Assembly (NCBI GenBank): GCA_017499595.2
Contig: CM039002.1
Coordinates: forward strand, 2,170,001-2,234,000
DNA: 64,000 bases
Origin: Psilocybe cubensis
Taxonomy: Eukaryota
Direction: 5' to 3'
Of this stretch, positions 7,337-35,665 are shown in pieces (position 1 is the first letter of the stretch; the number at the start of each line of letters is the position of its first letter). A program made the translations under genes and the position numbers. Below the pieces are notes generated by a model that was given only the letters and a program-made list of their open reading frames with translations, was not told the origin of the DNA and did no database searches.

Positions 7337-7926
7337 CTACTCCGAGTTTCCCAGATCTTCGCGGACACTATGCCTCTCTTCTAACTTAGTAAGAGTTTTT
7401 GCAATGCATCTATCTATGTATGCATGATATCGTCTATCAGTGTCCGCTACCTTCAATTTGGCAACCTCCGCCATATAAAGCCTATGTGCGGCGTCTTTGT
7501 ATGAAATGCCAAGGCTTTGTTTCAAGGCTTGCACTTCACTATGAAGTGCAAGCATCTCATGGTCGGTTAAAGACTACCAACATTATTAGTTCCATTCATC
7601 GTACTATATATCATACTATTGAAATGGACTCACGTTTTCAGGAGGCACACGTAGAATACCTGATAGAGTGAGATATGAGTCGGATTGTTTGGCGTTGGGC
7701 TTCTATATCTTATGGTCAGTAAATAAGTTTTGACGGACTGTTAATTCAGACTTACTCGAGTGAGGTCGGCATTATTAACAATCGGATCTTCTTTAGAACC
7801 CAAAACTGCCAAATCGTGCTCCAATGACGGAATCATGAAGCGGGGGACAACATATTTGATGTTATCGGGGCCGTCGATGGCAATATAACCTTCCGGGATT
7901 TTAGGGGAGGAATTCTGGGCACTCAT
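7337..7926 (-). CDS. Small multi-exon helical protein of the outer KDZ element (gene A)
   Basis: Exons MSAQNSSPKIPEGYIAIDGPDNIKYVVPRFM... and ...LHSEVQALKQSLGISYKDAAHRLYMAEVAKLK. Positional and weak sequence counterpart of 18311-19453. Confidence 0.55.
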
Positions 7927-8184
7927 ATTGATGAGATTTTGAAGGCCACATCATGATCTCTTTATATATTTGTCGGACCAAGGCCGCTTTTGGGTACGCG
8001 ACTGATCGGACAAGCGCGTCAGGGCGCGATCAATTTGATATCTTTAGGTCATGTGATCGTTTAGCAGGCAGATAGCAAGCAACAGGCATGGTTCATCCGT
8101 TTCCCTGCTCTCTTTCCTTCATTCCACCACCACCTACATCTTTGCCATCAAGCACATTCAACCAAACACCAACTCAAGCACCCA

Positions 8185-10997
8185 ATGGACTCCAAGATCA
8201 CCGACGCAAAATCGCTCCGTCTCGCTCTCGCAAAGCTCGATGCCAATGTTAGGGATGCAGTGAGAAGTGGGGAGGTCAAGAAGGTGATGACAGACCTGAA
8301 CGGCCTGCTGGTGCGCCTGTTATTTTTTTTTTTTACTGGCATGATACTAACTTGAAGATTTAGAAAGAGATTTTTCATGTCAAAAAGGCCCGCATCCATC
8401 CCGAAATCTTCAAAGAATTCGGGAACTTCGTGTGGTCCGTCATTGTGGATTACAAGAAATCGAGCAAAGCGAGCGATTTTGACATCGCCGGCTTCGTCAC
8501 CAAGCATCGCAGTGCACTGGCAAACATCGAGGGTGGTAGTGCACTACCAGCCTCTACCTTACCCGACCAGCACAAGTCGGATGTCGGGGGGAATCCTGAC
8601 ATCGTGTCGGATACCTCTCGTGTCAAGGGTTCCGACGGGTCGGATACCTCTCGTGTCAAGGGTTCCGACGGGTCGGATACCTCTCGTATCAAGGTTTCCG
8701 ACGGGTCGGGGTCGGCCCCGCCTCCAGACAACAGCAAAATGTCCAACCTGGAGTCGACCCCCACTCAAGGCCGCACACCCACACCTACAAACGTTGAGCG
8801 TCGGGAGTCCAATTCCGAGGCTCTTTCTGCCCAGCATCGCAAGGGCTTGAACATCATCACTCAAACTATGTCTGTCCATGCTGAGAGAACGTCGACGCCC
8901 TCTAATGCCACGATGCGTACGTACTTTTTCTAACATTTTGCATGATTTTGTTGTAATTAATGTGGTCTTGCTATATTTAACACGTCCAGGGCCTTCAAAT
9001 CCGTCATCCCGCCCCGCAAATCTTACCCCGTCATTGCCGCCTAGCGCAGCAAACCCCATTGTCCCTCCTGCTAGCACCTCTTTCCGTTCGATGTCGACAT
9101 CTAATCCCGTCGCTCTGCCTGCCAACAAAGCAAACGACATGACCAAAGCGCAGGGCAAGCCCAAGAGGACCTCCAAGGGTGGTGAGAGCACCAAGGACAA
9201 CTTGAAACCACAGTCAGTCGGGATTTTTGCCCATGAGGTTGCAATGGCACATTTTGACCGCCCCGACAGCCCCGAAAACAAGTTTCGGGCTTTGAAGCTT
9301 CAGAAAATGCTCAAGGAAGGTCCGTCTCGGGAGCCCATATCTGGCTCTGAATACCAGGGATCGTCGTCGGAGAATGAGGAATCGGAGGAGGAGAAGGCCG
9401 TTGGAAAGCGCAAGAGGTCGTCAAAGGCTTCGACCCCAATTCTTGCAACAAAGTGCGATTGGTGCATCAAGTACAACACCCAATGCGACGAGATACTCGA
9501 CAAAACTGGGAAACGTGCTTGTGCCATCTGCAACAGGCAGAAGAAGGGGTGTACATGGGGCGGTACACTTGTTTCCGAAAGTCGTCGGGCGCAGAAGGCT
9601 GCTGCACAGAACGCCAAAGCCAACACCAATGGTCCAACCAATGCAAATACGAAGACATTGAAGGCTACAAGAGCTCGAAAAGCCAAGAAGTCGGAGTCAA
9701 ATCAAACCGACAGCGAGGTAATGCCACCCAAGAAAAAGGTCAAGAAGTCTCTTCCTTGTATGTGCCCTGAATATTTTGTTCCTATTTGTTTGAATCTCAT
9801 AGTTTTCATAGATGTGGTGGACAGCGATGTCATTTCAGACGGTGCAAAGTCCGATCGCGAGTCCAAGCAAAAAAAGAACAAGCCATTGGATTCAGGTGAG
9901 TGCAACATTGTTGGTAGTGCATTACTTCAAAATTATTGATTCTTTGTTTTGAAGTTGATTACGTCGAGATTACCTCAGGTTCCGACACGTCCCAGTCCCC
10001 ACCCAAACCCATTTCAAAGCCCACCCCTTCGACAACAGTTCCGCCCGCCCCTTCAAAAACAATGCCGCCCGCCCCTTCAACAACAATTCCGCCCACTCAC
10101 TTGGCAACAATTCAAGCCCCACCACCACCACCTCAACGCCGTTTGCAGGACTCCGACCTGACCGATATTCCACTTGTTTCCGACCTCCTTAATCGGATGA
10201 ACGAGATGGAAGTTACAACCTGCGCCCTTCAGGTTGACTTAGCCCTGCTGCGGACAACAAATGAAGAGCTGCAGGACGAGCTTACTAGCGTAAAGTCGGC
10301 ACATACATCACTCAAGCGTCGTTACGATGACCTATATGAAAGGGTCACCCAACATCGTAAATCTGCAGCGGATTGTCAGTCGGCTTTTGCGTTGAAGTGG
10401 GGGAGTGGGATGAGCAAAATCAAGGCCGAGGTCAAGTATCTTTCTGACTGCCTTGAGAGGACAGAAGATTCCCTCGTCGTCCTTGAAGGACGTGTTGATG
10501 ATATTGACAAGCTTCATCAAATGCACAGCGACGGTGCGTATCTTTCTTGGGATGGGGAGTCCGATGGAAATGATTGTCCAATTCCAATGGACATGTCATC
10601 GGATGAGGCAAGCCATTCTCTGAATGCTGCCACTAACAACCCCACCAACCCCACCATTGACAAGCCCGCCTCCGACACGAAGTCCGACCCTGCCTCCGAC
10701 GAGAAGTCCGACCCCGCCTCCGACGCGAAGTCCGACCCCGCCTCCGACAAGAAGTCTGACCCCGCTTCCGACGACAATTCCGACCCCGCCTCCGATGACG
10801 ACGCTGATCCCGCTTCCAACAACAATTCAAATGCCGCTGCCAATGCCAACAAGGACACAGTAGAGGATGCTGTTAAGGCTAACAAATCCAATTCGGACAA
10901 CAATCCTGATCCCATGAGTGGTGGTGATGTTTTTATTCCCCCACAACCACCCACTACTCCCCCAGCACTTCCATTGTCGCCACCACCAGCTTTGTAG
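8185..10997 (+). CDS. Zn2Cys6-like cluster, coiled-coil, low-complexity protein of the outer KDZ element (gene B)
   Basis: ATG at 8185; intron 8311-8363 keeps the frame. C-x2-C-x6-C-x11-C-x2-C-x6-C at 9454-9552, heptad coiled coil at about 10190-10510, basic NLS-like patches. Confidence 0.7.
8606..8704 (+). repeat. 3 x 33-bp coding tandem repeat (SDTSRVKGSDG); each unit carries an inverted GTCGGA...TCCGAC pair
   Basis: gtcggatacctctcgtgtcaagggttccgacgg repeated at 8606, 8639 and 8672. Confidence 0.9.
10664..10820 (+). repeat. About 6 x 24-bp coding tandem repeat (PASDxKSD), mostly two TCCGAC per unit
   Basis: cccgcctccgacgagaagtccgac-like units. Confidence 0.85.
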
Positions 10998-11181: not shown

Positions 11182-13737
11182 TTAACTTGTCCTTTCACGA
11201 GGACGTCGGACCCGTTTACCCTCTACTATTAATGATTCTTCTACCTCCTTTCTTTTCTTTCGATTTGTGGGCGCAGGTATGGCAGGAGTCGGAGTCGATA
11301 CAGCAGCGGAAATGGGAGTTGAAGTCAATGCAGTAGTGGAAGCGGGAGTTGGTGCCAATGGAAGAGTAGACCCATGAGTTGGAATCAAAGGAAGTGCAGA
11401 AGCAGGAGTTGGAGCCGATGCAGAAGCTGACATGGGAGTCGGAGTCGATGTAGCAGCAGACGCGGGAGTTGGAGTCAATGTAGTAGCAGACGCGAGAGTC
11501 GGAGTTGATGTAGCAGCAGACGCGGGAGTCGGAGTCGATGTAGCAGCAGACATGGGAGTCAGAGTCGATGTAGCAGCGGAAGCAGGAGTTGGAAGAGTCA
11601 CTTCCCCTGCTGCATTGGTTCCAAGTAGCATGTCAGAAACCTGCCATGCATTACGAAGATCTTGTTGATTTTGCTCATACTCCGCAATTTCAGCAGGAGT
11701 TGTAGGTGGTTTGCAAGGTCGGGGTCGGGGGCGAGGCTTGCTGGTATGTAATTGAGTATGATCGGCATTGACTTCACCTGGTCTATTCAAGAGAACTTGC
11801 ATGTCCGATGGAAAAGGCTGCAAAGTAGTGGGAGTGGACTGATTAGCTGGTGTGACACCGCTAGTAGCAGGAGTTGCTGGTGTTGGAGTGCTAGTAGACT
11901 CGGCCATTATTGCTAATTGTAGCAATGAGATGAGGGCCTTGACATTGAAATCGGTAGACTCACTTCGCAAAGACGGGTCAATCATGCAATCCAAGATTAT
12001 GTTGGCATTGGGGGATGTTGATGTCTGCATAGATTCCGGAGTAGACTCAAATGTGATCAGACTTGATCCGCCCTGCATGTCCTCAATACGTGTCAGAGCC
12101 TTCTTTGATTTCTTTGATTTTTTAACAGGTGGCCGACGCTTGGTCTTTTCTGTGTCAACAGTACGAGTTTCATCAGGATACCATGTATCCTCAACGTCAT
12201 CTCCTTTTCTCCCCTTCTTAACCTTTCGAAACCTAAAAACTTGGCTTAGCGGAAATGTTTCCTGACGTGATCGGAGATGAGTGAACAAAGTGCGTAAGTC
12301 TTCAAGGTCAAGAAATCGGGGCCGTTTTAACTTGAAGCGGGGTGGCAAGTACTCTGGAGCAATAAACTTGGATTGGGAGAGCTCAATTGCCTCATAGGGT
12401 GTTTGCGAAGTGCGGCCATGTGTTGCAAGTTCTATTAAAAACTTAGTACCAGTAAAACTTATGGAAGTTCTCAATAGTATATACTTACTATAATTTTGTC
12501 CAAGATAAAGTCGTAGAAGTGACTCTAAATCTTTTCTATTGACCTTGGATGCATCAAAGTCTTGAGGCAGCATTGGGAATCCATCCGCGTCTTGATCAAG
12601 TATGAACATGTCGGATTTTGCCGTTACTTGCAACCCAGATGTTGCTCTTTCTTTTGCATTCAATAATCCGCGAACATAGGTACTTATTAGCCGCTTCATC
12701 TGGGTAACTTCATCTGGTTTTTGTTCTTCAAATAATGTTGAACAAACGCCAATAACACTGGCTACTTGATCATGACTGTGTATTGAATCAGTCGGAGTAA
12801 GTGAGTCGGAGTGAGTCGGAGTCGGTCGGAGTCATTATATAAGCAATATGAAAGCGGACTTGTGATTTCAAAACGCACACTTGGACTGACAACTGGCCAG
12901 TTTCATTAATCTGGCAAACAAATGTAATGCTCATTAATCCCATTTCCGCCCATTGCTGGATTGCCGCCTCATCTAGTGTCTTGAAAGCATACTTCCTTGC
13001 TTTCCTAAGCAAAACAAGTAAGCAATTAGGCCAATATTGTAATGAATTTGATCACTGACTTGCGTTTGTCCTCGTCGGAATATACCACTGAAGTATAATT
13101 TGATGCTTCTATGTCAAGCTGTCTCTTCTCGCGGTCGGACATTCGGGAAATAATGTTGCTCATTGCCTTCATACGGTTTTCAAAAACACCTGGTGTCCCA
13201 ACTCCGGCTGATTCAATTCCAAGAATGCTGGCAATCTCCTTGTAGACCTCGTCCCTTCTATTATACCAGAGTACAGTGGTACGTTTTAATTTTTTACCCT
13301 TTGTTGCAGCCTTTGTAAGCCGCTCCCCCCTCCAGTTGTTTCGAATCCATGCAAGCAGTTTCTTTGGGATAAAATATTAGATCCGACCATTGTAATAGAC
13401 ATATAGCCATACCTATTGTGTAATCGGGGCAAGTCGGGGCCGACAGTTGTTAATAAAAAATACAAATACAGTGTCCGACAAACACAATTACCTTTGCCTC
13501 CTCCTGCATAAACTCTTTACTACGGCTCACAACCCTATTTTTACTCCAGTGATTGAAAAGAGCAGGTAGTATTTCACATACTACCTGCTTACGGTCAAGA
13601 TTTGTCGACGCCTTGGTGTATTTGTCTTTGAATCTCTCAATAATTTCACGTTCATGGCGATCATACACCCTGACCAGTCTGTCATGAGCTCTAAACATGT
13701 CTTCCAGTATTGGATTTGGTGCTTCAGTACTGTCCAT
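11182..13737 (-). CDS. Multi-exon homeo/HMG-like helical protein, divergent from the transposase (outer gene C)
   Basis: Spliced product includes [66 protein letters not shown]...FRFRKV, collinear with gene 22794-25104. C-terminal 30-bp repeats and NLS-like KRVRRPRER. Confidence 0.7.
11400..11595 (-). repeat. About 6 x 30-bp coding tandem repeat ([10 protein letters not shown]), several units with GAGTCGGA
   Basis: gggagtcggagtcgatgtagcagcagac-like units on the + strand. Confidence 0.8.
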
Positions 13738-14035
13738 GCTGTACCAAGGAAAAAGGATAATGAAACTATGAGATAACTCTACATGTATGAGGACAGACCA
13801 ACCTTGACAATTTTCAAGTGTTAAAAATCAAAACTGCGCTGGAAAGAGGTAATGGTGGGGAAGAATGAATGCAGACAAACGCTTCCCAGAACCCCACCTC
13901 CTTTATAGGAATCTACACACATCAAAATATGTATATTAGGTAAGTTGAAACTATGCAGTTAGTACTGGAATGTGCCACCCTAAAGTATAGCAGTTGATCA
14001 ACCAAGATAGGTAATTTTCTCCTCTTGTCTCTAAT

Positions 14036-17000
14036 ATGCCATCTCAACGAACATCAAGCACCAGGAAAGCTAAGAAGAAGGCACTATATGAAGATGATGC
14101 AAATGCAGCAGATGCCGTAACATACAAGCATCAAACCAGAACAACACGAGCAGGCAAGGTTGTTTCTGAGCTTGTAAAGGTCTCTTTGAGCACTTCAGAT
14201 AGACCCCGTAGAAAGAACCCAGGAGAACCAGAAGTGCCAAATGTGGATGAGAATGCCAGTCAGGAGTTCAATGGGGACAATTATGGGGCACCAGAAAGTC
14301 CCCACGGTGAAGATGTAGTCCCCAAAATATGCAAGGTGTGTGTATATTTTTTATTTTATAGATCAGCTTACCATTTATTTTTGCGTAGACGCAGCGAGAC
14401 TATATTAACCAATACGTGTCTCGTGTAGATGACTTGCTGGGAGCATTGCTCAGCCGAGAGGCACCCAACATTCCAGACAATTCCGAACGGCCTATTTGCT
14501 CTAGCTGCAATAATGATTTAATTGCAGTATGGCGTTGTAAAGATTGTAGCTTACCATCCATGGTTTGTAGGATGTGTATGCGACACACTCACCAAGTAAA
14601 TCCAATGCACAGAATAGAACGTTGGACGGGATCCTACTTCCGGCAGGCACATCTATGGGAAACTGGTACCTATATTCTTATACCCCATCACACTGGAGAC
14701 TCTATATGTTCGTCACTGAACTTTCAGATTAACTACCTTGAAGGTATTGAGGAGGAAAAGGACAAAGAGGAGCAAATACAACTACACCAGTTGACATGGA
14801 AACAAGCGCCCGTCGGAGACTTTTTGACAGGTCATGCCGAAGATATTGATATTCAAATGGATAGCCCTGAGGATGACCCGACTCATATTCACGAAGGCCC
14901 TACCGATGATGAATTTGAAGAGTACCTAGACAAGTGTCGAGAAAATCCTTCGCTGCTGGATGACTTCCATGATTGTGATGATGAAACCGAAGTCGGGGAG
15001 GCGGAGGATGATGTGCAAGATATGCCTTATTATCTCCGACCACATTTTGGCAACAAAAACAAAGTCACCCCGACAGCAACTCCAAAGACCGACGGACTCA
15101 ACAATGCGTATGTTCGGGCAATTCACACTAATGGTGTTCATCACTTGGCCATGGTATATTGTGTATGTCATGGTGCCCAACAGCTTCCTCAGGATCTTAT
15201 TGCAAGCCGATTATTGCCAACAAGTTTTCATCGCATTCGTACCGTATTCTCTGCTCAACTTCTAGACTATTTCCGACTATCCAATCTGGAGCTCAAGGCT
15301 TCGGCTTATCAGTTTTATTCTCTTATCCGACGAATGACAAATCCATTGTCTCCTTCTAGTGTTGTGGATTTATACAATGAATTCCGAAGAATGTCAAGAC
15401 TATGGAGGTGGATGAAGAAACTTAAATGGGCAGGGTTTGCAGGACATAATGGAAAAACTGCACTGTCTGTCGGAAAAGGCGAACTTGGTATTTTCTGTCC
15501 CGCATGCCCACAACCAGGTATTAACTTACCCGACAATTGGAGAGAAGATCCAAATCGTTGGGTTTACAAACGAGTATTTGTGGCCGACGGAAACTTCAAA
15601 GCAGACCATGTCCGCTCAGAAAAGCCATCTCGGGATGTCTGGCTTTCGGAAGGCAGTGGCATGATTCCAGATCGCACAGAATATCATGCATTCCTTAAAT
15701 CTGCAATAGAGGCATTGACAGTCAGTATATTCAGTACTCTTGTTTTAATTCAAATATAGTGAAACTAATCTATGCTAGGGTGCTCCATGTGAGAATACCT
15801 TCCGTGCAATTCAAAACTCACTGCTATCTAAGTCATCTTGTGACGTTACGGGGATTGTTGGCATTGCTTGTGCCCGACATGGCTGCTACGCCCCAAATGC
15901 AATTGTAGACCTTTTTAAAGGTGAGCAGCAGAAAAATGTTGACTTTGCATTTTTGGCTGCGCTTGCATCAACTGGAGTCCATCCCGACCAAGGCACTATG
16001 GTGATATATGACATTGTCTGCCAGTACATCATATGGCTGCTCAAACGCATTAAACACCATCTTCCTGAAGGTCTCAAGATTGACAGAGCAATTGGAATGT
16101 TCCATGTTCATGCTCATAAAGATGAGTGTTTTTTCAGATATGCTCCCACATTTATTCCTGGTGCCGCCTGTGTGTGTGGCGAGATTCTGGAGTCATTGTG
16201 GGCCGACTTGAATGCTATTTCTCCAGCGGCTCGTACAGCAACACTGGCTCACCGTGCTGAAATCCTTGACGATCACGCTTGTGACTCCAACCACAAAAAA
16301 GCACTTAATTTAACAAGATACCTGTGCCGACGATACCTCGAAGCCGACGAGACAAGAGACAAATATCGGATATGTTTTGCCAATCTTAACAGTGCTGTCG
16401 ATCCCGAAGCAGTTAAACTATGGATGAAGCAAATTGAACACGTAGAAAAAAATCGATTGGAAGACCCTAAACTCATGGATATATATACTGCTAAGCGACC
16501 CGGATCTGTTCCAGTCAATACAAGTACAAGTGACTGTGCCTGCCCTACTGTGCCGCTGACTCCGGTACAGTCATGGATCCAATTTGCATTAGTGATTGAA
16601 GAAAAGCAGTACGTATAATTGTTTAAATTACTATACATTTTTAACAGTGCAAATTCCATTGTTTAGATTAGACATACGTATGCGTGCACGGCGGCTTGTC
16701 AATCATGATCGTCTCCCCGACTGTGTCAAACTCCAGAAGCTACGCGAGTCTCTCAAGACATTAATGGTTCAGCTTGCTAAACTTCAGTCTAAAGCTGGGG
16801 TGATTGCTACTGGGAGGCAAGATATTGAAATTTCCGACCAGATTTTAATTGATTGGGAAGACGAAGAAGACGTTTTAGCTCCAGGATCGGGTCCAACAAT
16901 AAATGAAGACATTGACCTACAGCCAATATGCCTACCATCAAATGGCAGTGCAGATGCAATGTATGCATCCGATGAACTCAAAGCCAGAATATCCCAAGCT

Positions 17001-17745
17001 CGAGGCCATCTTAATCAAATCCGAGAGCTTATCGCGGAACGCTCCTTTCAGTTTAAAGAAGTTGTCCAAAAGGGCCCACGTAAAGGTGTCCGCACACGAG
17101 GTCAAACAGCAGTAAAAGAGTTAAAAGATCAAATTTCTCTACATGCTCAGGCATATTCACACTGTCGAAGTCGCATTGTCAAGCTCGGGGCCGACGATGA
17201 AATTCTTAGAGAGTTGCGCATTTTAACCAAAGATGACATCAAGTCAAGTACTGCAATTCTCAATCCAAATTTGCCAGGGTCAACCAAATTTCGTTTATCA
17301 TGGATTTGGTATTCTGTACACCAAAGATTTGGACCGCGGTGGGCACTTGACCCGACAGCTACACCTGATTCCGACCCAAACGCGTTATCGGAGGACGCAG
17401 ATCCTGCCACTGTTCTTGAATGTGAGTTAAATCATTAATATTCAACCATGGGCGCTTATATATTCCCAACCCAATTTTATAGTTAAAAGAGTTCATTGGT
17501 TGCGTGCAAGGGCACTATATCACAGGTGGAATGAAGAAGCAACCCTTGTACGATATGAGATGCAGTGGACCGTTGCATATTTTATGCATCAGAGTAAAAA
17601 ATGGGTGAAATATGTCGAGTCGGGGCCAACACTCAGCGCGGGTGCAATAGCTTACGCTTATCGCAAATCTGATTCTTGGCGTAGCTTGGCGATGGCTGGA
17701 GATCAATTATTTAAATGCATAAATCCCCTGTACAAACCATTGTAA
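14036..17745 (+). CDS. KDZ transposase with N-terminal CxC2 cysteine cluster (outer element)
   Basis: CxC2 region WRCKDC...CRMCMRHTHQVNPMHRIERWTG, IHTNGVH, CPACPQPGINLP; catalytic core DGNFKADH, CARHGC, KGEQQKNVD, YDIVCQY, FHVHAHKDEC, GEILESLW; C-terminal WLRARA...RWNEE. About 5 exons, no disabling change seen. Confidence 0.93.
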
Positions 17746-17779
17746 TTTCAAATACCCCTCTTGTTCACTTACTTCCATC

Positions 17780-17914
17780 ATGAGCACTGAAGAACTCGAT
17801 CCTATCAAAGTTATCACCGTCTTTGACCCTTTCGATCACAATTACGCACGCCGGTCAAAGAAAGGGAGGCAAATTCAAAAAACGGTTATTTTTGCAAATT
17901 CAAGATTCCGCAAT
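17780..17914 (+). pseudogene. 5' part of outer gene E, interrupted by the inner KDZ insertion
   Basis: MSTEELDPIKV...NSRFRN ends exactly at the TSD and continues in frame at 33533 (ILEHILKAPTVRQKKWMQECLQIEL). Confidence 0.8.
17908..17914 (+). repeat. Left target-site duplication CCGCAAT
   Basis: Identical 7-mer at 33526-33532, immediately outside the right TIR. Confidence 0.92.
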
Positions 17915-18232
17915 CACATAAGACAGTTTATTTATAACGTACATTACCTAAGATTTAATAATAAGGATATTACGTGAGACACGGTGGATTTACTTCCGCT
18001 ACCTAATTAGGAGATTAGCGTGATGTACGTGTGATTTAGCCTGGCAAATCATAGCGTACATGACGTGCCATTTAGCGCTAAATGGAGCCGCCGGGTGGCC
18101 TGCGGGATCCGCGCGTCTACCTACACGGAAGAAACACGGGCCGGAAATGAGCCGGACGGGTCCATTTGCATCCCGTGTATTGCAAGCAGACGGATCCGCT
18201 TGACCCGTGTTGTGCTGTCAGACGGACCCATT
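17915..18232 (+). repeat. Left terminal inverted repeat (318 bp), begins CACATAAGACAG
   Basis: Reverse complement of 33208-33525 except at 17980/33460 and 18038/33402. Confidence 0.95.
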
Positions 18233-18310
18233 TGACCCGTATCTTCCCAGAGAGGGAGGGATATTTGAGAGGTATTGCGAATCAATGAGCACAAGGGCTC
18301 CAAAAATAAT

Positions 18311-19453: not shown

Positions 19454-19938
19454 TGCTGATGCTCAGAAATCAATTAAAATTTACTTGAATTAATGCCATT
19501 AGTCTTACATTTTATAGGTTTTACGGGAGGAGGTTCCTTCAGTTTTTCAAGAAGCCTGGTAAGATTGTTGAGACTGGTGTAGTCAATGGGGGAATTTTTG
19601 CTAGAGGTGGGAATAAAGTTGTAGGAGGACATACAGTCCAGAAAGTGCAACTGGGTGGGCTTGTTTATATATCTCACGGAATACAATACTATCCGAGGAT
19701 TCTCCATGACACGGAAATAGATTCACCCGTGTATCGAACTTAGCAACTTTTGCACAAACTGGATCTGGTGAAGAAATCACATGACTCAGATTGTACATGT
19801 TTGTGTATGGTTTTGTTTTGCGGGACCGCTTTTTTTTAGACTTTTTTTAGACTAACTCCAACCACGATCACCACCCTCACGTTCTACCGTGCCTCACCCA
19901 TTTAACGCGTCTTCCCCCATAAAAACACGCTTTTTTCA

Positions 19939-20642: not shown

Positions 20643-20676
<34 letters not shown>

Positions 20677-25104: not shown

Positions 25105-25983
25105 AATTGCAGCGATGTAACAAGTAGCTTATCAATGAGTATCTGTGTGATCTAGTCAAATCTCACGTCATACGGAGATAAAATAAGCTTCCGATCATAC
25201 TAAATGAATGATGTGATGTCATATTTTTCCCAATCAGGTAATCCCGCTTCATAGTCGGCCACGATGATCAAAGCATGCTGGTCGCTGTCACATACATTGA
25301 CCTCATGATTTTGCAATAGTTCCCTCTGCACTCAATCAATAAACATGAAATTTTGTAAACATTTAGCGCTTTATATAAAGATAATCTTACAAGGTTTTAA
25401 ATTCTTGTTAGATGGCTGTAAAGATACAGAAACACAAAATTCAAATTCACGTCTTCTCACCCAAAACTTGTGAAACCCAAAACGGCAGTCATCTCAGAGA
25501 CCATGAGAGGTATTCAAATGCATAATTTTTTTCAAAAAATATAATGATCCCAGTGAGCTCATTTTGACACATTTTCTAGTATATTGAGAATATCTCCTTA
25601 AATACGAGGATTCACATTCTACAAAAAATGTCATTCGGTAGCTATTAAAAATATCTTTCATATGATATACGCCGGAGGAATGAGGGGCCAGCCAGTGAAA
25701 AGATATTTCAAAAACACTCCAAAGTGTGGTTCTGAAAGGGTCGTTCTGCATCATATTGTACATTTATGATGGGATCACGTCCATTTTGTGCATCTCTGGA
25801 TTAAGTTTTGTTCATAACATTTCACTCACTCATCCAAATATGCTGCAAGATAGATCATATGAAAGCTATTTTTCTCCTCTTTAAAACGGCATAATTGAGG
25901 GAAATTTATCTACAGAAATAAACATGTTATACTACATTTAGATCTGCGCTCACAGGCTGTCAGACTCTTTGTTTCCAACATCC

Positions 25984-28900
25984 ATGGGCTTCAAGAAAGT
26001 ACCTGATAGGGGATTGGATGAGGAGTTTCCCAATGTTCGGGAGGCCTCCTGGTCTAGTGGGGCCAAGAAACGAAAGAGAGGGCGGCCGAGGATCCACAAA
26101 CTTCCTGCAGAATCATCATCAACAAACCTCCCTCAAACAACGACTTACTCTTTCCAAAACCATGAACACAACATTCTGGAAGAAGAAATACCTCATTATC
26201 CGGGAGATCTAACTGATCAGCAGGTACTTGATAACCTGAGACAGCTAGATGACGACAGAACGGGAGGAAAGGTATGTTTTAACATGTTTTCAGTAGAATG
26301 ATCAGGATGACTTTACCTATCCAGTCTCAAAATGATTACCTGAGGGAATGGCTCCCGAAACGAGAGGTGTATCTTGGAACAATGATTGGAGGAGAAGCCC
26401 CGGATCCGGATCTGAATGGACGGTGTCAGCAATGTCAAGGAATGTCTGGAGTGTGGAGATGTTGCCAATGCTTTGGCTCTAGAATTTTGTGTTCTGAATG
26501 CCTGCAAAGAAACCATCAATTTACACCTTTCCACCGCGTTGAGAAGTGGACGGGTCTATATTTCCGTCCGGGAGCTCTGTGGGAAGTGGGTGTCAAGTTG
26601 TATTTGGGTCATAATGGGAAGCGGTGTCCTTATCCCACGGATCCGAGCCATCTAGGATGCGACGGCGGAAACAATTCATCCGGGAGTCATGGGCACGGCG
26701 GAAACAATTCGCCCATCTTTGAGGATGAACACGGATTGGATCTGGATCCGCTTCCTGCGAGCAATGACCAAGAATCCTTTACGGCTCAGCTTCTGGCAGA
26801 CCCGGAGGTACCCCATTTGGTTGAGCTGGACGATGGAGACGATGAAGACGATGATCTATTCGAGGAAGTCGATACAACCTATCTGGACCAACCTCGTCCA
26901 AAGGCAGCAGACAACAATGGAATTCCTTTCAAGGCAATTGTGCACACCTCCGGAGTCCATTATCTGCCCGTGCGAACATGCACATGCCGGTCCGTCCGCC
27001 TTCCGTCTATCGATTTACAGTATCTGGAGATGGGATTATTTGCAGCCAGCTTTGAAAACGTTCAAACTGTGTTCACAGTTGAGGTCCTTGAGGACTTTTG
27101 GATGGACAACCTCGAGTGCAAAACGTCGGCTTATCAGTATTACCAAAAGTTGCGAAGACTGACTTCGCCAGCGTTTCCAAAAAAGGTGCTGAACCGCTAT
27201 CGTGAATTGAGAAGGCTTAGTAGAGAATACAGGGACCTTGTCCTGAGACGACAATACGGAGAAGGGCATACAAGAGAAGCGGTGGTCCCTTACTATCATC
27301 ATTGCCATGATTCATCACCAGAGAGGATGGGTATTAATGTATCTGATCCAATTGACGGCGGATCTGATAGTCCGTCTCAAGAAGTCGGAATGTCAACGGA
27401 CCCGTCTCTGGGACACGGCGGATTAGATGGTCCGCCTGCACCACACATGACGCGGACCGAGGATCATCCCAAAGTTGAAGATAGGAGAGGGAAGTTGGCC
27501 TTATTCTGCCCCGCCTGTCCACAGCCTGGAATAAACCTACCTGATACCTGGATTGATGATGCTGACAGGCAAGTTTTAGTTATTCTTCAAGGGTGACTGC
27601 AATTAACAGCAAATAGCAATCTGCACATACGTAGTTATGTTGCAGATGGTAATTTCAAAGCAGATCACCTCAATCAGAAAAACGAGGGAGACGATGTTTG
27701 GTTGAGCGTTGGAGAAGGATACATGACTGCTCCGGGCCCATACAAGGAGCACATCAAGGAAGCAATTTCTCTTGCTCCACGTTATAAACGGGTGCGTTAT
27801 CTACCATGATTTATCTTTCACGGCGGATGCTTACGTTCCGTGTCACAATCTTCCACGGCGGATGCTTCCCTTCCGTGTCAAAAAAATCTTCCACGGCGGA
27901 TGGCTTATCCTCCGTGTAAAAAAATATCAGGAACAAACATGTCATAACTACCACACCCAGAAAGCTGAAAACAGAGTCAGCCCGGGTAAGAGAGTACGTG
28001 GAATTGGGGCACACGCTTGCGCTAGGCACGGATGCTTCTGTCCATCCAGCGTTGTTGATTTTGACAAAGGCGAAAAGCAGATGCACATGGATTGGTCTTT
28101 GACTCAGGCCAGGGAAACTACCAACACACAGGGAATCACAAAACATTTGGAAATCTACGATATAAACTGTCAATATTGCGTTAACTTGGCAAGGCGTCTC
28201 TCAGAGTCCACAAAAATGCATTGGCCACCTTCTGTTAAAATGATTTTTGCAATTGGTTTATTTCACGTCCACGGGCACAAGACGGAATGTCTTTACAACT
28301 ACGCATCCACCTATGTCCCGGGTGTGGGAATCATTGACGGAGAAATCCTGGAGCCGTTGTGGTCCGTGTTAAATGACACATCCCGGAGTACACGTTCCGC
28401 TACCACTGCCCATCGAGCAGAGGTTTTGGACGACCACATGGGGGATTCCAACTGGAAGAAGACCATTAATATGGCTGCAACAATTGCTGCAAAGTTCAAA
28501 CGGGCACGGGAACAGTCCGGAATCACAGACCGATTTTATAGGGGTATCACGGATCAACAAGATTCCGGGCTCATCAACACTTGGGAAGATGAAATTTCAA
28601 AAGCAGAAGCGGACCGAGAACAAGGTGTGGCCGACGCTGTTGGCAAGGTAATGGCAAGCAAAGTGAAAACGGCTGCTGGACGCCAAGAAATTGAATTGCA
28701 TCTTTCAAATATGGAACTTACATCTAATGGTGCTACTGGAAAGGCAGCATGGATATCATCCGGCTTAAAACTGGAGCAAGCGCAGTACGATTATTTCAAT
28801 TGCATCCTACAGAATTTAACATGCTTTTAGATTGGAGCTCAGGGACCATGTCAGAAAGCTCGGAAAGCATCCTTCCACCGCGCAGAAACTTGACTTGGTC

Positions 28901-29906
28901 AATAAACGTCGCTCCATGCGGACCCGCGTTGAAGCCTTCTGTCGATCCGCTATGACCTTCATGGGCGAAGATGTCTTGGAGGATATTCAAGGGGACATCG
29001 CTCCCATACTTGACTATGAAGTCAGTGACAACGACGATCCTGATCTTGGAAATGTCAACATTACCCGCGCGGATCCGGAACGACAGCCGCTTCCGTTTCC
29101 CTCCGCCGTCAAACAAGATTTCTTTGACGGCCTTGACGCGGGAACAAACCTCATTTTAAAAGGGCTTCGCAAACTTGAACTTCAAATAAGACATGGCCAC
29201 GCAGAGGACTGTCTGGAAGCGGTCCGGTCAGCCTTGATCCAGCTTTCTTGGCAGTATAAATATCAGGTTTGGACCGCCGACTCCGTCTATATGGGGACTC
29301 GTGCTTGGGATGGCGTCAAGCTTTTGAATGCTTCCTGGAAATTGCACCGGCGACTCTACAACACAAACCGTCAGAAGATGATCTATTTATCTGCTGGCGT
29401 GCGAGACGAGGATAATATTCGGAAACAATATCCCATTCTGCAAGTCCATGATTGCAAGCATAGTAATGCCGTGTCGGATCCGAACATTCGCGGAGGAAGC
29501 TCGGACCGTCTAAGTTGGATTTGGAGATCCCGTCAGGGCCTGGACAATGATAATCAATTATACGTTAATGAGTGTGAGTACTGCTATTTGTATTTCTAAT
29601 TTTTTTCTCAAGGGCTTCTTAGTCTTTAGGCTAAACTGGCTCCGCGCGCGAGCTCAGAGGAATAGATGGCAAGAGGAGCTGGCCTTGACAAAAAAGGAAA
29701 TGGAATGGACTGTCAGATTTTATGTGTATATGGCAAAGACATGGCGTGCACGGCATGATTTTGTTCCTGACAGGTTAGTTGGTCACAGGGCAAATGCTCA
29801 AAAGCAGATTGCCATGTGGAATGATCTGGGGCGGGCCGCGGATAAGGTCTTCCGTCAAATTAACCCGGAGTATCCGTCCGTGTGGAGATTTATAATTACA
29901 GATTAA
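25984..29906 (+). CDS. KDZ transposase with CxC2 cysteine cluster (inner element)
   Basis: WRCCQC...CSECLQRNHQFTPFHRVEKWTG, VHTSGVH, CPACPQPGINLP, DGNFKADH, CARHGC, KGEKQMHMD, YDINCQY, FHVHGHKTEC, DGEILEPLW, WLRARAQRNRWQEE. About 6 exons including a GC-AG intron at 27569-27616; frame intact. Confidence 0.94.
27818..27920 (+). repeat. 3 x about 33-37-bp tandem repeat (CACGGCGGATG...TCCGTGT) in a transposase intron
   Basis: Lies within intron 27792-27930. Confidence 0.85.
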
Positions 29907-29950
29907 CCAGTTCTTTGAACATTCTTGTTGTATCCCATCTCGTTGAATTC

Positions 29951-31575
29951 ATGCACTTACCGCGGCTTTTTAAACCTCCTGTCGAGGACGAACATCATCT
30001 CCTTACCTATGATGAGCGACGTGCTCTGGCCAAAGTTCATGTCCATATTTGTGGTGCACGGATCCGTGCCGGATACCGTTTGTTCATTGCAAACGGAGAC
30101 TCTGTTTCCTCCGTGTGTCGCCAAAAATGGATGTATTTGCTCGACCTGGAGGTGGTAAGACAGTAATTTTGAACGATTATATCTTGTATTGAGAACTGGT
30201 CGTCAGGCTATACTGCTGAGAGTACTCGGATACTGCTATGTCAATGGATTCCAAGTCAATATTCCATTTTTTATATCAGAAATTCTCAATCAGAGCGTAC
30301 ATGCCGTTTTGAACCGAACTCCCCACCATCAAGCTGTTCTATTTGAATCTCTAAATCAAAGCTGGTCAGCATGGGAAGATGATGAAATTTTAAATCAGAC
30401 CAAGAGCTGGGGATATTGGTGGAGGGACGGATTTGCTGAAGGCGATGAGTGGCAAGTTGCCTTTGTTACCGTTGAATCGCAAGCAAGAGAATTTTGGAAC
30501 AAGGTATGTTTTTTTATTGCTGTGGATTATATCTGATTTGCGTCCTTCCCACCAGGTGGTTCTGCCTGAATACCAACAAGAGGTACTCCGGCTAAATAAT
30601 CAGAGGAAAGAAGCTAAGGAGGGCGCAAGTTCATCTACCTCTGGGCCTCCAAGAAATCAGGAAAACAATCCCAAGGGCAAGGGAAAGGCGGCTGAACGGA
30701 CATCCGTCCCCACCTCGGGGAAGCACGGATCCGCGTTGACGGGAAAGCACGGCTCCGCGTTTTCACCGCCCACGGGGAAACCCAATCCGCCGACCCGTGT
30801 TGCAAACACGCGGGATGAAACATCCCCAATTGCAATTTCTGACCACAGACCGCCCTACTGTCCCCGCTGCGGTCAGCCTATCCTAACGGGCGTAATGAGG
30901 GAGTTGGCTCACCTGCGCCGGAATGTGGCGGACAAAATGAAAAATGCCCATAAAGCAGTGACTACTTCTTCGGCCGCCTTGGGCAGATATTCTGTATTGG
31001 AGAAGATGTGGATTGACTCTAAGGAGCACCCGTTCTCTAACGGCAAGGGGCTTTCAGCCAAATACAAATTTCAGCATCCCGTTCACCCTTCTCCTGACAG
31101 TTGGGGCGCTATAACGGCTCAAGCCCGGTCCTTCGAGGTCTCAAAGCTCAAAGTCGCTTCATTTTACATCAACGACATTTTTTATTCTTTTATTGCCGTC
31201 AAGGAACTACCTTTTCATCCACTCTGGTATCATTCGCCACCCTCCAACACTGCAAATATTCATCTCCCAACAGATACTCTGCCTACTCCCGGTTCCGTCA
31301 GCCCTCCGTCAAATGCACACACCAGCAATGCCTTCCTTTTTAACGCAAGGTCAAGACCTGTTTTCCCGGGAGAAGAGGATGATATTGATAGTACGTCCGA
31401 TACCACTGAATCCTCTACACCAGCTACGTTTTTAGAGCATCTCGCACAGGACTTTGAAGAGGAGGCGGATGAGGAGTCTTCCGCCGGTAATACGACGGAG
31501 GAGTCAGATGCTTCCGGTAACTCGGAAGAGCTTAGCGAGGACGTGTCGGAAACACCCTGGGATGAGGAATCTTAG
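29951..31575 (+). CDS. Acidic-tailed CxxC protein downstream of the transposase (inner gene E), 3 exons
   Basis: MHLPRLFKPP...RQKWMYLLDLE | AILLRVLGYCY...GYWWRDG | ...CPRCGQP...QARSFEVSKLKVASFYI...D/E-rich tail. Homologous to the split outer gene E. Confidence 0.65.
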
Positions 31576-31708
31576 TTGCCCACCTCTCGCACAGGACATC
31601 AAAGAGGAGGCGGATGATGCCTTTTCCGCCGGTAATACGACGGCGGAGTCCGATGATTCCGGTAACCTTGGAAGAGCTCAGCGCGGGCGCGTCGGAAACA
31701 CCCTGGGA
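31441..31708 (+). repeat. About 123-bp direct duplication (31441-31562 and 31586-31708) of the end of gene E
   Basis: ctcgcacaggac...gaggaggcggatga...ccgccggtaatacgacgg...gtcggaaacaccctggga occurs twice. Confidence 0.88.
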
Positions 31709-31802
31709 CAGAGAATTCTGGTTGTTCTGTAGCTTTCGTACCGTTTTGTTTTGGAAATATAAAAAAATCTTCCCCAAACCCAACTTCCAAGTCAAAAACT
31801 GA

Positions 31803-33082
31803 TCATATTTCAAAATCAAAAGTGTTGGTGGCCGGTAAATTTGCAAAAAGATCGTACGTAGTAGACCATCCCGCCTCTTGGACTCCCAGCTCTTTAAATA
31901 CATTCCTACGCATGTAATAGACTATGACTGCCCTATCTCCCTCGCACACCGCGCCGTGTTGAAGCAACCTGCCGGTAATTGCAACAAGGGTCATGGGATC
32001 ATACTTGTACCGAAGTCCAAGGCCAGGAAGCTCAAGCCGTCCGTGTTCACCCTTCCCAAGTGGCATCAAAAAATCGTACCATGAGTAGCATGACCCATTA
32101 TCCCGATGGTACGGTGTATCTCGGTTGCTGATGGCGGTCATGACTCCAAAGGGCGAACTCCATATTGTGAGAATTTGCTTCAATATTTCGGCCTTATGGA
32201 CGAGCTCCGGTTCCGCAGCAAGCCGTTGAAGAAATTTTATTCCCGCCCGGTACTGCTCGGGGTGTATAATGCTCAAGATGGCTCCCAGCAAAGCCGAAGA
32301 TGTCATCATGTCTCGTATAAACTCCTGTCCAATAGGATTACACAAGTCCAAGGAGACCTCAAGCGGGTTGGACGTCTGAGGAAAATATGAGGCAGTATAA
32401 TACTTAGCAAACAAGTTTCTCACCTCATGGCCTTGCTGAAACCATGCCGGGGAAAAGTTAAGATTTCCAGGTTGAAGCCAACCTGGCTCATGTCGAAAGT
32501 AACTGTCATTGACCCTCCAGCTTGTGGCCAAAGGTGCCGCCTTGTGAATCATTGTTTCAATATCCCGTAATGAATTCCACACACTCTCCTGTTACTCTTT
32601 AGAACGCATAATATAGGAATTAATCGGTCCGTTTCTAAAACTCACCACCCTTGTCTCTGACAAAATACCTGGCAGGTACCACACCAATATGTTGCCTGCA
32701 CTATCGATTACAGTTCCGGGCAGGGTTTGGTACTGTAACGTGGAATGCACCGGAGGAAACTGGTCTTTCAGGCGAGCCTCAACGGCAGAATTCTGACCCG
32801 TGCAACGTGCGCTGAGATGGGTCAAATATTCTTCTGCATCCCACGTCATATATTCTGCCATTCACACATTATTTAATCTCAATTTTCAAAGCTTATTGAT
32901 TGCATACCTTGATTTTCAAATGCCTGCAAAATCACCTCCACAGCTAGATTGCACTCAAACATGGTCTCAGCACTGAAGTTTTCCCGGATTTGATTAGGCA
33001 GTTCTGCATGCCAAAGACGACTAGCTATCTTTGCCTTCATGTAGTTTGAGAGGGATTGGGTTAGCTCAAAGGCATAATCCAT
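31803..33082 (-). CDS. TET/JBP-family 2-oxoglutarate/Fe(II) nucleic-acid dioxygenase, 4 exons
   Basis: Fungal TET/JBP motifs GNILVWYLPGIL, SPAWFQQGH, LSIIHPEQY, ISNRDTPYHRD (HxD), LELPGLG, LLQHGA (distal His) and DRAVIVYYMR (2OG-binding Arg). Confidence 0.9.
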
Positions 33083-33207
33083 ACTATCAGGGTATGTGGA
33101 AAGGAATTTGCTGCCAGTATAATCTATACACCTTATTACATATATTAACGGTCATCCAATGTACGATTCAAGGCGGATATTTGTTGGAATACAGAAGCGG
33201 ATGGATG

Positions 33208-33525
33208 AATGGGTCCGTCTGACAGCACAACACGGGTCAAGCGGATCCGTCTGCTTGCAATACACGGGATGCAAATGGACCCGTCCGGCTCATTTCCGGC
33301 CCGTGTTTCTTCCGTGTAGGTAGACGCGCGGATCCCGCAGGCCACCCGGCGGCTCCATTTAGCGCTAAATGGCACGTCATGTACGCTATGATTTGCCAGG
33401 CCAAATCACACGTACATCACGCTAATCTCCTAATTAGGTAGCGGAAGTAAATCCACCGTATCTCACGTAATATCCTTATTATTAAATCTTAGGTAATGTA
33501 CGTTATAAATAAACTGTCTTATGTG
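33208..33525 (-). repeat. Right terminal inverted repeat (318 bp)
   Basis: Reverse complement of 17915-18232; ends ...CTGTCTTATGTG. Confidence 0.95.
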
Positions 33526-33532
33526 CCGCAAT
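33526..33532 (+). repeat. Right target-site duplication CCGCAAT
   Basis: Matches 17908-17914. Confidence 0.92.
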
Positions 33533-35083
33533 ATTCTTGAACATATCCTCAAAGCCCCCACTGTGCGTCAAAAGAAGTGGATGCAGGAGTGCTTGCAGAT
33601 TGAATTAGTAATTTTTTTTCACGCTGATTGTCACATGATAATGACGTATTTGATTAGGATGTTGTCTTGACATGCATTGGAAATGCCTACACTGGATCTC
33701 AAGTTATTGAATTGCCGCTCCTTCTGCGTTCGCTATGCGACACACTGTCAACCGCCAAAACTCGTTCTCTTCCACTTGATATTGACACCAGCATCGTTGA
33801 GTTACTGGCCGCGGGAACACCAAGCAATGCGCTTGATAGAGATGTTGACTCTTATTCACATGCTTGGTGGCTGAAGAACAGCCCGCCATCGGACGACCAG
33901 ATGCTAAACGGCGAAAATCTCATCAAAGTCATGAAATATCACAAAGAAGAATTGAAGAAATGCCTGGATAAGGAGCGTGAGGATTTGGCCAAGGCATCGC
34001 AATCAACATTGTCCACATTGTCGGTGCCGACCGATGTTGTTCCGACTCAAATCAAGCCGATCCTTATGGTTCTCAATGATGCCGACTCTACCCCTTGCAA
34101 CTCCTGTTCCCGAATTTCTACGCTTGCCGACGATTTACTCCACCAGTTCCGAGGGTTCAAAACAATGTCGAATGCGAACGTAGGCCAATCAAACCGTGGT
34201 GTCGATCGCATTGCACGACGTGCTGCAGGTTTCTTCAAGCTGTACGAAGCATCCCAAGGATTAGCATCAGTAAAAAAACCCGACACTATGCCCGACACAC
34301 CAGCATCAAAGTGGACTTGGGGTCCAGAGCCTACTGTAAAACAGGTAAGTGAACAAGTCATTTTTGGAGTACATGACTTATAGTATAGCAGGTCCGTGCT
34401 CTTGGTGTAGCCACCAAAACTGTCCATTCGGGATACGTCAAAAGCCTTAGAGATGGCGGGGACTTAGGTAAACAATCATCCACCAAAACATCGTTCCTAG
34501 ACACTGTACCCCCTCCGTCTCAACCTCTATCATCCCGCGAGGACAGAAAGGCTCCGCCGTCAAACCAATTTGACTTTCCTCAATACTTCGACGTTGGGAC
34601 GGAAGGATCCCAGGATAGCGCTGGAGAAATGGCCACTTTTGAAGTAGGCAAAATCAATGCCGACGCCAAACCTGCCGACCCCGGAAGCGACCTTGAAGAT
34701 ATTCTTGACGCTGCAATTGAGCTTATGGATGCGGAAGATGCACAAGAGGCTGCCGCGGGGAATAGATCCGACCCCAATTCGGACAGCAGCAGCATTGAAG
34801 ATCTCAATCTGGCATTAGAGCTCTATGCCAATGAATTGCAAGAAACTGACAAGGACGATTCAACTGACCTCGCCAGTGAAGCCGCTGCACTCTTTACCAA
34901 TTCTGAGGATGGTTTGTACAATTTTTTCTTACTGATTTAACATTCAACTTACGAGGAACTCATTTCTTTGTAGAATCCGACTCCGACCATGCAATGGATA
35001 TTGATCAGCAAGAGTCGGACGCACCTCCCCAATTCACATCGGAGCACTTTGCGGGTAACTTAGAGCTAGAGCTTTTTGACTGA
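33533..35083 (+). pseudogene. 3' part of outer gene E (acidic CxxC protein), separated from its start by the inner element
   Basis: Exon 33533-33607, intron 33608-33657, then DVVLTCIGNAY...HAWWLKN...CNSCSR...QVRALGVATKTVHSGYV...acidic tail to TGA at 35083. Confidence 0.75.
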
Positions 35084-35269
35084 TCTGTACATTGTTCTGT
35101 ATTGTAGATACAATTTGTGTACTTCCGAATAATATTTGTATTCTTTTCTTGATAACTTGAAACCTTTTCTATGAGTATAGTGAACCACTCCCAATTCCAA
35201 TATCACAATTTATTTATTCTGACCACGGTTCCAACATACTGACAACTTGAAAATCACGCTGCTGTTAGT

Positions 35270-35665
35270 AACATCCCGCCGCCGCCAACATCCCGCCGCC
35301 GCTATTCCGACCCCAATTACAACATCCCGACACGGATATCCCGACCATTTCATCCTGAAACCATCTTTCAATATCCGACTCCAATTCCAGTATCACAATC
35401 CATTCATTCCAACCCCGAGACGCCAACTTGAACATCCCGCCACCAACATCCCGCTGCCAATATCCCGACCCCGATTACAACATCCCAACTGTCAACACAA
35501 ATTTCCCGACCAACCCATCCCGACCCCATCCCGACCCCATTCTAAAATGTCGACTCCGATTCCAATATTCCGACCCCAGTATCCCGACCCATTCATCCCG
35601 ACCCATTTATTCCGACCCATTCATTCCAGCCCTGATGCCAACATTCCGACGCAATTTATCCTGAC
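35270..35665 (+). repeat. Non-coding array of about 13 same-strand CCGAC motifs with decayed CCAAC/CTGAC variants
   Basis: Repeated (a/t)(t/c)ccgac(c) units separated by A/C/T-rich spacers. Confidence 0.8.

Follow-up and report, generated by a model that had tools for sequence, protein, structure and literature searches.

How does a transposon tell its own copies from the rest of a genome? The question is raised by 64,000 nucleotides (nt) of the Psilocybe cubensis genome (NCBI GenBank assembly GCA_017499595.2, contig CM039002.1, positions 2,170,001 to 2,234,000 of the forward strand; hereafter the window, whose first letter is position 1), in which one KDZ transposon is inserted within an older KDZ element. 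The initial annotation held that each of these two nested elements has its own CpG-containing word and its own six-cysteine (six-Cys) protein, and saw in the pair a candidate anti-silencing system comparable to the VANC proteins of Arabidopsis VANDAL transposons. Word counts, the cysteine clusters and Pfam searches confirmed the nesting and the pairing. We conclude that the pairing of a zinc-cluster gene with such words in KDZ elements is real and apparently undescribed, whereas the anti-silencing reading is only partly supported. We propose, with a probability of about 45%, that the zinc-cluster protein (the gene B product) would read its family's own CGG words, as a self-recognition factor similar to maize TnpA or the Harbinger Myb-like protein.

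Each element is enriched in its own CGG word

The inner element spans 17915-33525 (plus strand, 15.6 kb) and is flanked on both sides by arms of the outer element. The word ACGGCGGA occurs 20 times in the window, 18 times inside the inner element and twice elsewhere, compared with a mean of 1.26 and a maximum of 5 in 100 dinucleotide shuffles. The outer element holds 54 copies of TCCGAC (about 7 expected), with 5 in the inner element and 20 in the flanks. An unbiased scan of 6- to 8-mers ranked ACGGCGGA and TCCGAC words at the top, each in its own element, and added a palindrome that the initial annotation lacked, CGGATCCG, which has 10 dispersed, non-tandem sites in the inner element (one in each terminal inverted repeat, TIR), none elsewhere and about 0.2 expected. 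When all arrays found by Tandem Repeats Finder (TRF) were masked, 9 copies of ACGGCGGA (0.39 expected) and 30 of TCCGAC (6.7 expected) remained. Because both excesses persisted, the element-specific enrichment, on which the initial annotation had let its idea stand or fall, extends beyond tandem repeats. The sequence beside the word sites carried about 0 bits of information, indicating short words rather than duplicated longer repeats.

The inner-element hairpin listed at 24153-24241 in the initial annotation is perfect and lies between gene C and the transposase gene; its 41-nt arms are 100% complementary, and it contains six ACGGCGGA words in alternating orientation, separated by gaps of 7-9 nt. 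A seventh word follows at 24412, a position that had been assigned to an intron and falls in no known gene model. The intron repeats noted at about 27818-27920 correspond to an array at 27813-27925 (plus strand), which lies in the intron at 27792-27927 of the mapped transposase model P0006 and holds three copies of a 35-bp unit in which ACGGCGGA precedes TTCCGTGT. In this array and in the inner part of both TIRs, ACGG(C)GGA-type words alternate with CCGTGT about 11 nt apart; in the left TIR, this stretch (18173-18226) alternates CCGTGT with ACGGA/CGGATCCG at about 11-bp spacing. The claim that the inner words extend into the TIRs thus holds for ACGGA, CCGTGT and CGGATCCG and fails for ACGGCGGA, which is absent from the outermost 900 bp at both ends and concentrated mid-element. 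The palindrome, together with the alternating words 7-11 nt apart, would suit paired binding. Contigs from the public runs X1 and X7 carry a form of the hairpin array that is 63 nt shorter (joints 24152-24233), and other-strain contigs skip 39 nt inside the intron array (27879-27919); these skipped segments may be copy-to-copy length variation or collapsed repeats in assemblies.

In the right part of the outer element (34000-35665, plus strand), CCGAC is nearly one-stranded, with 24 sites on the plus and 2 on the minus strand, and a dense array at 35307-35646 contains 13 same-strand A/T-T-Y-CCGAC-CC sites. By analogy, this polarity resembles subterminal binding-site arrays. Together with 35270-35665, the hairpin and the intron array form the non-coding arrays of the pair; many other sites are exonic. 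The words at 26662 and 26695, also listed in the initial annotation, lie with those at 27355 and 27415 in transposase exon 2 and not in an intron, and they encode [D/H]GG. The coding repeats reported for the outer element are present and could be placed inside its gene B (TCCGAC repeats at 8606-8709 and 10665-10838) and its gene C-like open reading frame (ORF), where GTCGGA-bearing 30-bp repeats occupy 11396-11593.

The paired genes encode divergent zinc-cluster proteins

The two six-Cys proteins come from real genes and are about 840-860 amino acids (aa) long. Inner gene B occupies 19939-22515 on the plus strand; the P. cubensis protein P0004 maps to 19939-21654 with 99% identity to the ORF, which runs from 20131 to 22515. 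Outer gene B (8185-10994, plus strand) encodes 857 aa, and the protein P0082 maps onto it in four blocks, three of them 100% identical and one (8992-10080) 81% identical and seemingly crossing an intron. The cysteine clusters lie exactly where they had been placed, at 21214-21333 in the inner protein (plus strand, CX2CX6CX18CX2CX6C) and at 9454-9552 in the outer one (plus strand, CX2CX6CX11CX2CX6C). Both follow the Gal4-type spacing CX2CX6CX5-12CX2CX6-8C, with an inner CX18 loop that exceeds the usual range.

The Pfam family Zn_clus (PF00172, cut-off 21 bits) matched six of the seven KDZ-linked clusters available and reached the cut-off in two; among the relatives from the metagenome loci described below, the scores were 27.5 for L031 and 22.0 for L035, both at or above the cut-off, 19.8 for L011 and 9.5 for L005, with no match for L065. 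A profile built from the seven clusters gave 15 matches at E ≤ 10 in the PDB, 13 of which are Zn2Cys6 DNA-binding domains. The best were Lac9 (E 0.00099) and AlcR (E 0.0017, collinear across all six Cys), and the others included Pho7, Leu3, Gal4, Cep3, Ppr1 and Put3. Pfam pairs the cluster halves in swapped order, and the basic residues that are conserved fall in the cluster's second half. On these comparisons we class the six-Cys domains as divergent Gal4-type Zn2Cys6 clusters, with the window proteins below the curated threshold.

The proteins share a layout in which a small N-terminal domain and a long charged region precede the cluster, and a TPLGSYG/GELLVQL segment and then a heptad-rich stretch come after it. 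In the inner protein, a coiled-coil-like stretch after the TPLGSYG/GELLVQL segment is followed by a Pro-rich tail, and P0079 has the same layout; the outer protein runs from SD-rich repeats through the C6 cluster and a coiled-coil-like stretch to DPASD repeats, with weak Pfam matches of coiled-coil type. The heptad-rich segment after the cluster, present in the inner and outer proteins, L031 and P0079, is probably a coiled coil, and the layout resembles a zinc cluster joined to a putative dimerisation element. A predicted homodimer of the inner cluster and coiled-coil segment scored 0.14 against a mark of 0.32, which speaks neither way. Remote homologue searches among 1.84 billion representatives gave six matches at E ≤ 0.001, including a spurious one to a coiled-coil giant, and word-based searches returned Psilocybe cubensis proteins only; by this measure, gene B proteins are fast-evolving. 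In P0083 and P0084, paralogues about 45% identical to outer gene B by BLASTP, the cluster-flanking segments are invariant and the inter-Cys residues differ; P0083 has CX2CX7C in the first cluster half, and in P0084 Tyr replaces the fourth Cys.

Gene module and word enrichment recur in other KDZ loci

A KDZ-profile scan of metagenome contigs yielded 80 fungal loci, 440 kb in total. Five of them contain a strict six-Cys ORF; the pattern was absent from all 20 shuffled sets and from the 35 kb that flank the elements in the window. As in both window elements, each of the five ORFs shares the strand of the transposase, and it precedes the KDZ match by 4.9-8.2 kb. Two loci, L039 and L041, are truncated upstream because their contigs begin within a coiled-coil-like B-type ORF, and L020 and L022 perhaps also begin inside or just after a B-like ORF. 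Relatives of gene C were detected in 8 of the 80 loci: the N-terminal 100 aa or so of inner gene C (22794-23828, minus strand, divergently oriented to the transposase) match upstream of the transposase in all eight, on the opposite strand in seven. TET relatives occurred in 19 loci, mostly downstream of the transposase and on the opposite strand. The inner element has both the cluster gene and TET, as do L005, L035 and L065, the only three metagenome loci whose sequence spans the two regions. From the positions of six-Cys ORFs, gene C and TET across loci, the order B, C, transposase, TET constitutes a conserved module. The gene order of L080 deviates from that of the other loci, with TET upstream and on the plus strand.

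Word enrichment was assessed in 18 sequences, namely 16 loci of at least 8 kb and the two window elements, with L006 and L079 omitted as near-duplicates of L005 and L080. With the dispersed-word excess counted as occupied 60-bp bins, the top dispersed 7-mer exceeded all 30 second-order Markov simulations in 13 of the 18, and all 13 words contain CGG/CCG; in the other five, no word exceeded all simulations. Among three flank controls, only the transposon-rich left flank beat the simulations, marginally and with a CpG-free, splice-donor-like word, and the host-flank controls showed nothing comparable to the element words. In the 51 loci of at least 3 kb, 20 had a top word score of at least 12, and 19 of these 20 words contain CGG/CCG, compared with 41% of CpG-containing 7-mers; the 20 loci are not all independent and represent 15 distinct words, 14 of them with CGG/CCG. 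Words differed from family to family: own-word density was 6-20 occupied bins per 10 kb versus a median of 1-3 elsewhere, the owner being picked as the maximum.

The word CCGACGG/TCCGAC was top or strongly enriched in at least seven loci (L041, L016, L008, L015, L004, L059 and L011) and in the outer element. Some of the loci that share it are only distantly related, and word types may be older than single families. A KDZ tree set against word identity was weakly resolved, with 3 of 15 inner branches supported, and placed the outer transposase on a very long branch. Downstream of its transposase, L080 contains two long opposed arrays (11783-16097) with a period of about 188 bp that carry GCGGCGG and CAATGCGG.

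A candidate reader of the family's own words

From the observed anatomy, enrichment, domain family and recurrence, we infer binding, dimerisation and all downstream effects as follows. Both elements are Kyakuja-like KDZ cut-and-paste transposons that share a module in which gene B and the CxC2-KDZ transposase gene lie on the plus strand, with gene C between them on the minus strand; the inner element adds a TET/JBP gene (minus) after the transposase. Gene B encodes a fast-evolving, divergent Zn2Cys6 protein that would read short CGG words spread over the family's DNA, these being ACGGCGGA, CGGATCCG and CCGTGT in the inner element and (G)TCCGAC(C) in the outer one. The words are found close to the element ends, in front of genes B and C, within introns of the transposase gene and in coding repeats. 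By binding them, the gene B product would label copies as "own" and would switch on element promoters and/or bring the transposase to the ends. The candidate words suit such a reader because they contain CGG, the triplet that Zn2Cys6 domains contact.

Several results weigh against this proposal. The window proteins score below the Zn_clus cut-off (19.1-19.5 bits for the inner and 8.9-10.1 for the outer). The AlphaFold2 domain model is poor (predicted local distance difference test, pLDDT, 61) but forms a short helix at each CX2C, and a Foldseek search with this model gave no match at E ≤ 0.001; it gave 24 matches at E ≤ 10, and the 19 listed (E 0.58-4.2) are all Zn2Cys6 domains, none significant. 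By raw occupied-bin count, only 6 of the 18 long loci and elements came out above every one of 40 simulations, and L039 equalled the highest simulated value. Many sites fall in coding low-complexity repeats ([D/H]GG, PPP, SD), and part of the word excess may stem from protein repeats, since the DPASD repeat is kept as protein in outer gene B paralogues about 45% identical (BLASTP). L079 and L080, which have the strongest arrays (GCGGCGG in 36 bins), yielded no six-Cys ORF over 18 kb, even when the pattern was relaxed, and L065 has a cluster ORF and no significant word. Every locus also encodes a transposase with zinc fingers of its own, a possible reader.

Site conservation belongs with these points. 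When words were defined in one copy and compared with control CpG 7-mers within 150 bp, 43 of 90 motif sites were intact in diverged copies versus 33.9 expected (z 2.1), an excess due to one pair, L008/L015. In L079/L080, mismatches numbered 5 of 256 at motif positions and 27 of 12,204 elsewhere, and with only 32 mismatches these two copies are too alike to inform. A first test (71 of 121 motif words intact versus 4288 of 11,058 other CpG words) was set aside as biased because its words were drawn from both copies and its pairs overlapped. This would reflect either rapid turnover of the arrays, as is reported for VANC targets (Hosaka 2017, PMC5735166), or weak selection on them. Across 12 diverged pairs of KDZ copies, CpG-containing 7-mers were intact in 4288 of 11,058 cases (39%) and CpG-free ones in 15,227 of 28,226 (54%). 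This lower survival appears to be a signature of CpG hypermutability in these elements and fits methylation-driven decay.

The words might instead be sites of the KDZ transposase, bound through its B-box-like finger or CxC2 for end recognition and perhaps self-activation, with gene B serving a different role. All loci with words have a CxC2-KDZ transposase, including L079/L080, where gene B was not seen, related words stand inside the TIRs of the inner element, and the one-strand array adjoins the right end of the outer one. The reported absence of TIRs from Kyakuja families (Kojima 2025, PMC12730594) would make subterminal sites necessary, and transposases are described as capable of sequence-specific activation of their own copies (2026 preprint, 10.64898/2026.08.24.746577). 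Against this, ACGGCGGA avoids the very ends of the inner element, and gene B is syntenic, with a layout kept across very divergent families. The constant CGG content of the words matches the Zn2Cys6 preference, and to our knowledge nothing is known of the binding specificity of CxC2. We consider a transposase reader somewhat unlikely.

A second alternative gives the zinc-cluster protein a VANC-like, anti-silencing task: as an "address reader", it would bind the family's CpG words and bring methylation protection, or the element's TET/JBP, to own-family copies only. It shares all the support for predicted binding by gene B. Every enriched word contains CpG, the methylation target; the cluster gene and TET co-occur in the four elements named above; arrays lie between gene C and the transposase gene and within an intron of the latter; and CpG 7-mers decay faster than CpG-free ones. 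The observed/expected (o/e) CpG ratio is 0.80-0.81 in the inner element and outer left arm, compared with 0.95 in the host flank and also 0.95 in the outer right arm. VANC itself is a precedent (Hosaka 2017, PMC5735166), and Kojima 2025 (PMC12730594) has each TET serve its own family, with no targeting mechanism given in the passages that treat this. However, the outer element has words and gene B and no TET-like sequence on search, about half of the inner sites are exonic whereas VANC targets are non-coding, and motif CpGs are not consistently better kept than neighbouring CpGs. Oxidised methylcytosine in Coprinopsis and Laccaria also lies over retrotransposons, and untargeted action is suggested (Kojima 2025, PMC12730594). 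Of the initial annotation's interpretation, the pairing, the divergent Zn2Cys6 identity, the CGG in the words and the recurrence of module and enrichment in metagenome KDZ loci stand; the exonic sites, the outer element without TET, L080 without a cluster ORF and the inconsistent site conservation count against it. We regard this version as unlikely, and a TnpA-like self-recognition or activator role, or a transposase reader, fits the data at least as well.

That the words are functionless by-products of GC-rich coding repeats, tandem duplication or CpG richness, or chance host-factor sites, is improbable: many sites do lie in coding repeats, array length may differ among copies (at the joints given above), sites are poorly kept between diverged copies and 5 of the 18 long loci and elements lack a word beyond all simulations, but the excess persists after tandem-repeat masking and as occupied 60-bp bins, CGGATCCG is dispersed far above expectation, site flanks are uninformative, CCGACGG/TCCGAC recurs in at least seven loci, some distantly related, and in the outer element, and host-flank controls show nothing comparable.

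Structure of the two elements and their surroundings

The inner element is bounded by TIRs of 318 nt that are 99% complementary, the left at 17915-18232 (plus strand) and the right, its inverted copy, at 33208-33525 (minus strand). A 7-bp target site duplication (TSD), CCGCAAT, brackets it at 17908-17914 and 33526-33532, and its termini are CA..TG (CACAT...ATGTG). With this TSD, these ends and a KDZ transposase carrying a CxC2 cluster, the element has the Kyakuja features tested, and the 318-nt TIRs make it a variant with respect to the absence of TIRs in that group. In public-run contigs, the match breaks off exactly at 17914 and 33526 and the flanks beyond differ; single inner contigs reach a depth of about 500, whereas contigs of the DNA around the element have about 24 in that run. 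These breakpoints and depths identify the inner element as a young family with many near-identical copies.

Its genes begin with gene A (18545-19462, minus strand), an ORF with 15.5 copies of a 36-bp repeat that reads as Pro-rich; CGGCGGA is present in seven of the copies (sites 18845-19385). Pfam searches gave no family for gene A, gene C or the other accessory ORFs, and Atlas matches for gene C and other accessory ORFs were only Basidiomycota clusters without names. The transposase gene (25984-31572, plus strand) follows the P0006 model, a near-identical annotated copy of 1691 aa with a B-box-like finger, CxC2 and KDZ, which continues through the ORF at 30394-31575; like P0004, this annotated P. 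cubensis protein is about 99% identical to the window ORFs. Pfam assigned CxC2 (PF18803, E 5.1e-21) and KDZ (PF18758, E 3.1e-37). The TET/JBP dioxygenase that had been attributed to the inner element was found there and only there, as a domain exon at 31803-32591 (minus strand; PF12851, E 3.6e-19, profile positions 3-163 of 164), with HRD, a distal H and R visible in the translation.

The outer element is an older, low-copy KDZ transposon. Beyond gene B it contains the gene C-like ORF (11182-12831, minus strand), with weak relatives in L035, L005/L006 and L022 and a fourfold GTCGGA array (12791-12830) at its upstream end, and a CxC2 and KDZ transposase gene (14389-17742, plus strand; PF18803 E 3e-17, PF18758 E 3.4e-38) that ends just short of the inner insertion. 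A search for outer ends with CA..TG and a 7-bp TSD returned 26 candidates, about the chance number, and the outer bounds 7337 and 35665 are tentative. In the candidate pair 8159/35746, the left end is unlikely because gene B begins at 8185; the sole hint of an outer right end there is that a run X7 contig stops near 35746-35752. Contigs X1 (33526-35800) and X7 (33526-35752) each have 608 extra letters on the 33526 side that were not placed on the inner TIR, and these would fit an outer-element copy or allele without the inner insertion.

At the left window edge (3-1967) lies a Ty3/Gypsy chromovirus pol fragment with RNase H, integrase, SH3 and chromodomain. Given this fragment and the low CpG o/e of the left flank (0.57), the KDZ pair sits in a transposon cluster beside host genes. 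The top 7-mer of positions 1-7336, AGGTATG, fills 8 bins versus 0.9 expected and resembles a repeated splice-donor-type sequence. The right 28 kb of the window contains ordinary host genes, such as those for a DnaJ C-terminal domain protein and splicing factor 1. Within this host block, a 36-bp tandem repeat (41422-41612; 5.4 copies, 87% matches) lies in overlapping ORFs on both strands and gave no Pfam family.

Relation to known systems and significance

Maize En/Spm TnpA is required for transposition and, in addition, restores activity to silenced copies and demethylates them, and the Harbinger Myb-like protein is likewise an accessory self-recognition protein. As with TnpA, the elements described here encode an accessory protein, predicted to bind DNA, that is separate from the catalytic transposase. 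TnpA recognises many short words (12-bp subterminal motifs) in both orientations near the ends and promoter, and similar words occur here: the outer right end has its 13 same-strand sites, and the inner TIRs have related words, with ACGGCGGA confined to more internal DNA. TnpA is described as a transposon-encoded, transposase-derived transcriptional regulator (10.64898/2026.08.24.746577). The candidate reader here is instead a Zn2Cys6 protein, its words also lie mid-element and in coding repeats, and in the inner element a TET is aboard.

The likeness to VANC lies in a fast-evolving transposon protein and short, family-specific motifs that are often tandem, for which a family-restricted effect has been proposed (PMC5735166, PMC10398659). 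We saw no sequence relation to VANC, and Pfam gives only Zn_clus in the window proteins. VANDALs carry no dioxygenase, and demethylation, shown for VANC, would be a prediction for the KDZ pair. With Gal4/AlcR-type factors, the gene B proteins share the six-Cys spacing, profile similarity, a heptad-rich segment after the cluster and CGG candidate sites, and the long Cys3-Cys4 loop is common to the inner cluster and AlcR in the profile alignment. Gal4-type factors carry the cluster at the N-terminus, whereas here it lies mid-protein in a largely disordered product of about 850 aa whose gene is transposon-borne.

Within KDZ elements, the inner element is like TET-positive Kyakuja in its 7-bp TSD, CA..TG ends, CxC2-KDZ transposase, TET/JBP and Agaricales host, and unlike Kyakuja-1/2_LB, described without TIRs, in having them (Kojima 2025, PMC12730594). 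The main texts of Kojima 2025 (PMC12730594) and Huang 2024 (PMC11588098), as far as the relevant passages go, contain no mention of a zinc-cluster gene or word arrays; their supplements and Iyer 2014 may differ. In a full-text literature search for Zn2Cys6 with KDZ elements, the only hit among the matches listed was Cryptococcus population genomics. The extra ORFs of KDZ elements are stated to have no predicted domains (Huang 2024, PMC11588098), and our results assign a likely DNA-binding role to one of them.

TET-carrying transposons are widespread in fungi, and the pairing offers a plausible means by which elements could recognise their own copies. Kojima 2025 (PMC12730594) holds that a TET has to serve the family that carries it, but proposes enzymes without target specificity; a family-specific reader beside TET would resolve this tension. 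If true, the anti-silencing version would account for TET-positive transposons favouring themselves and not transposons at large, and the system would stand as a fungal equivalent of plant VANC/TnpA anti-silencing that brings its own enzyme. The zinc-cluster genes of KDZ elements may also supply compact, naturally diversified DNA-targeting modules for fungal epigenome work. More broadly, members of the largest fungal transcription-factor family appear to live in transposons, which bears on the origin of these factors and of their site networks.

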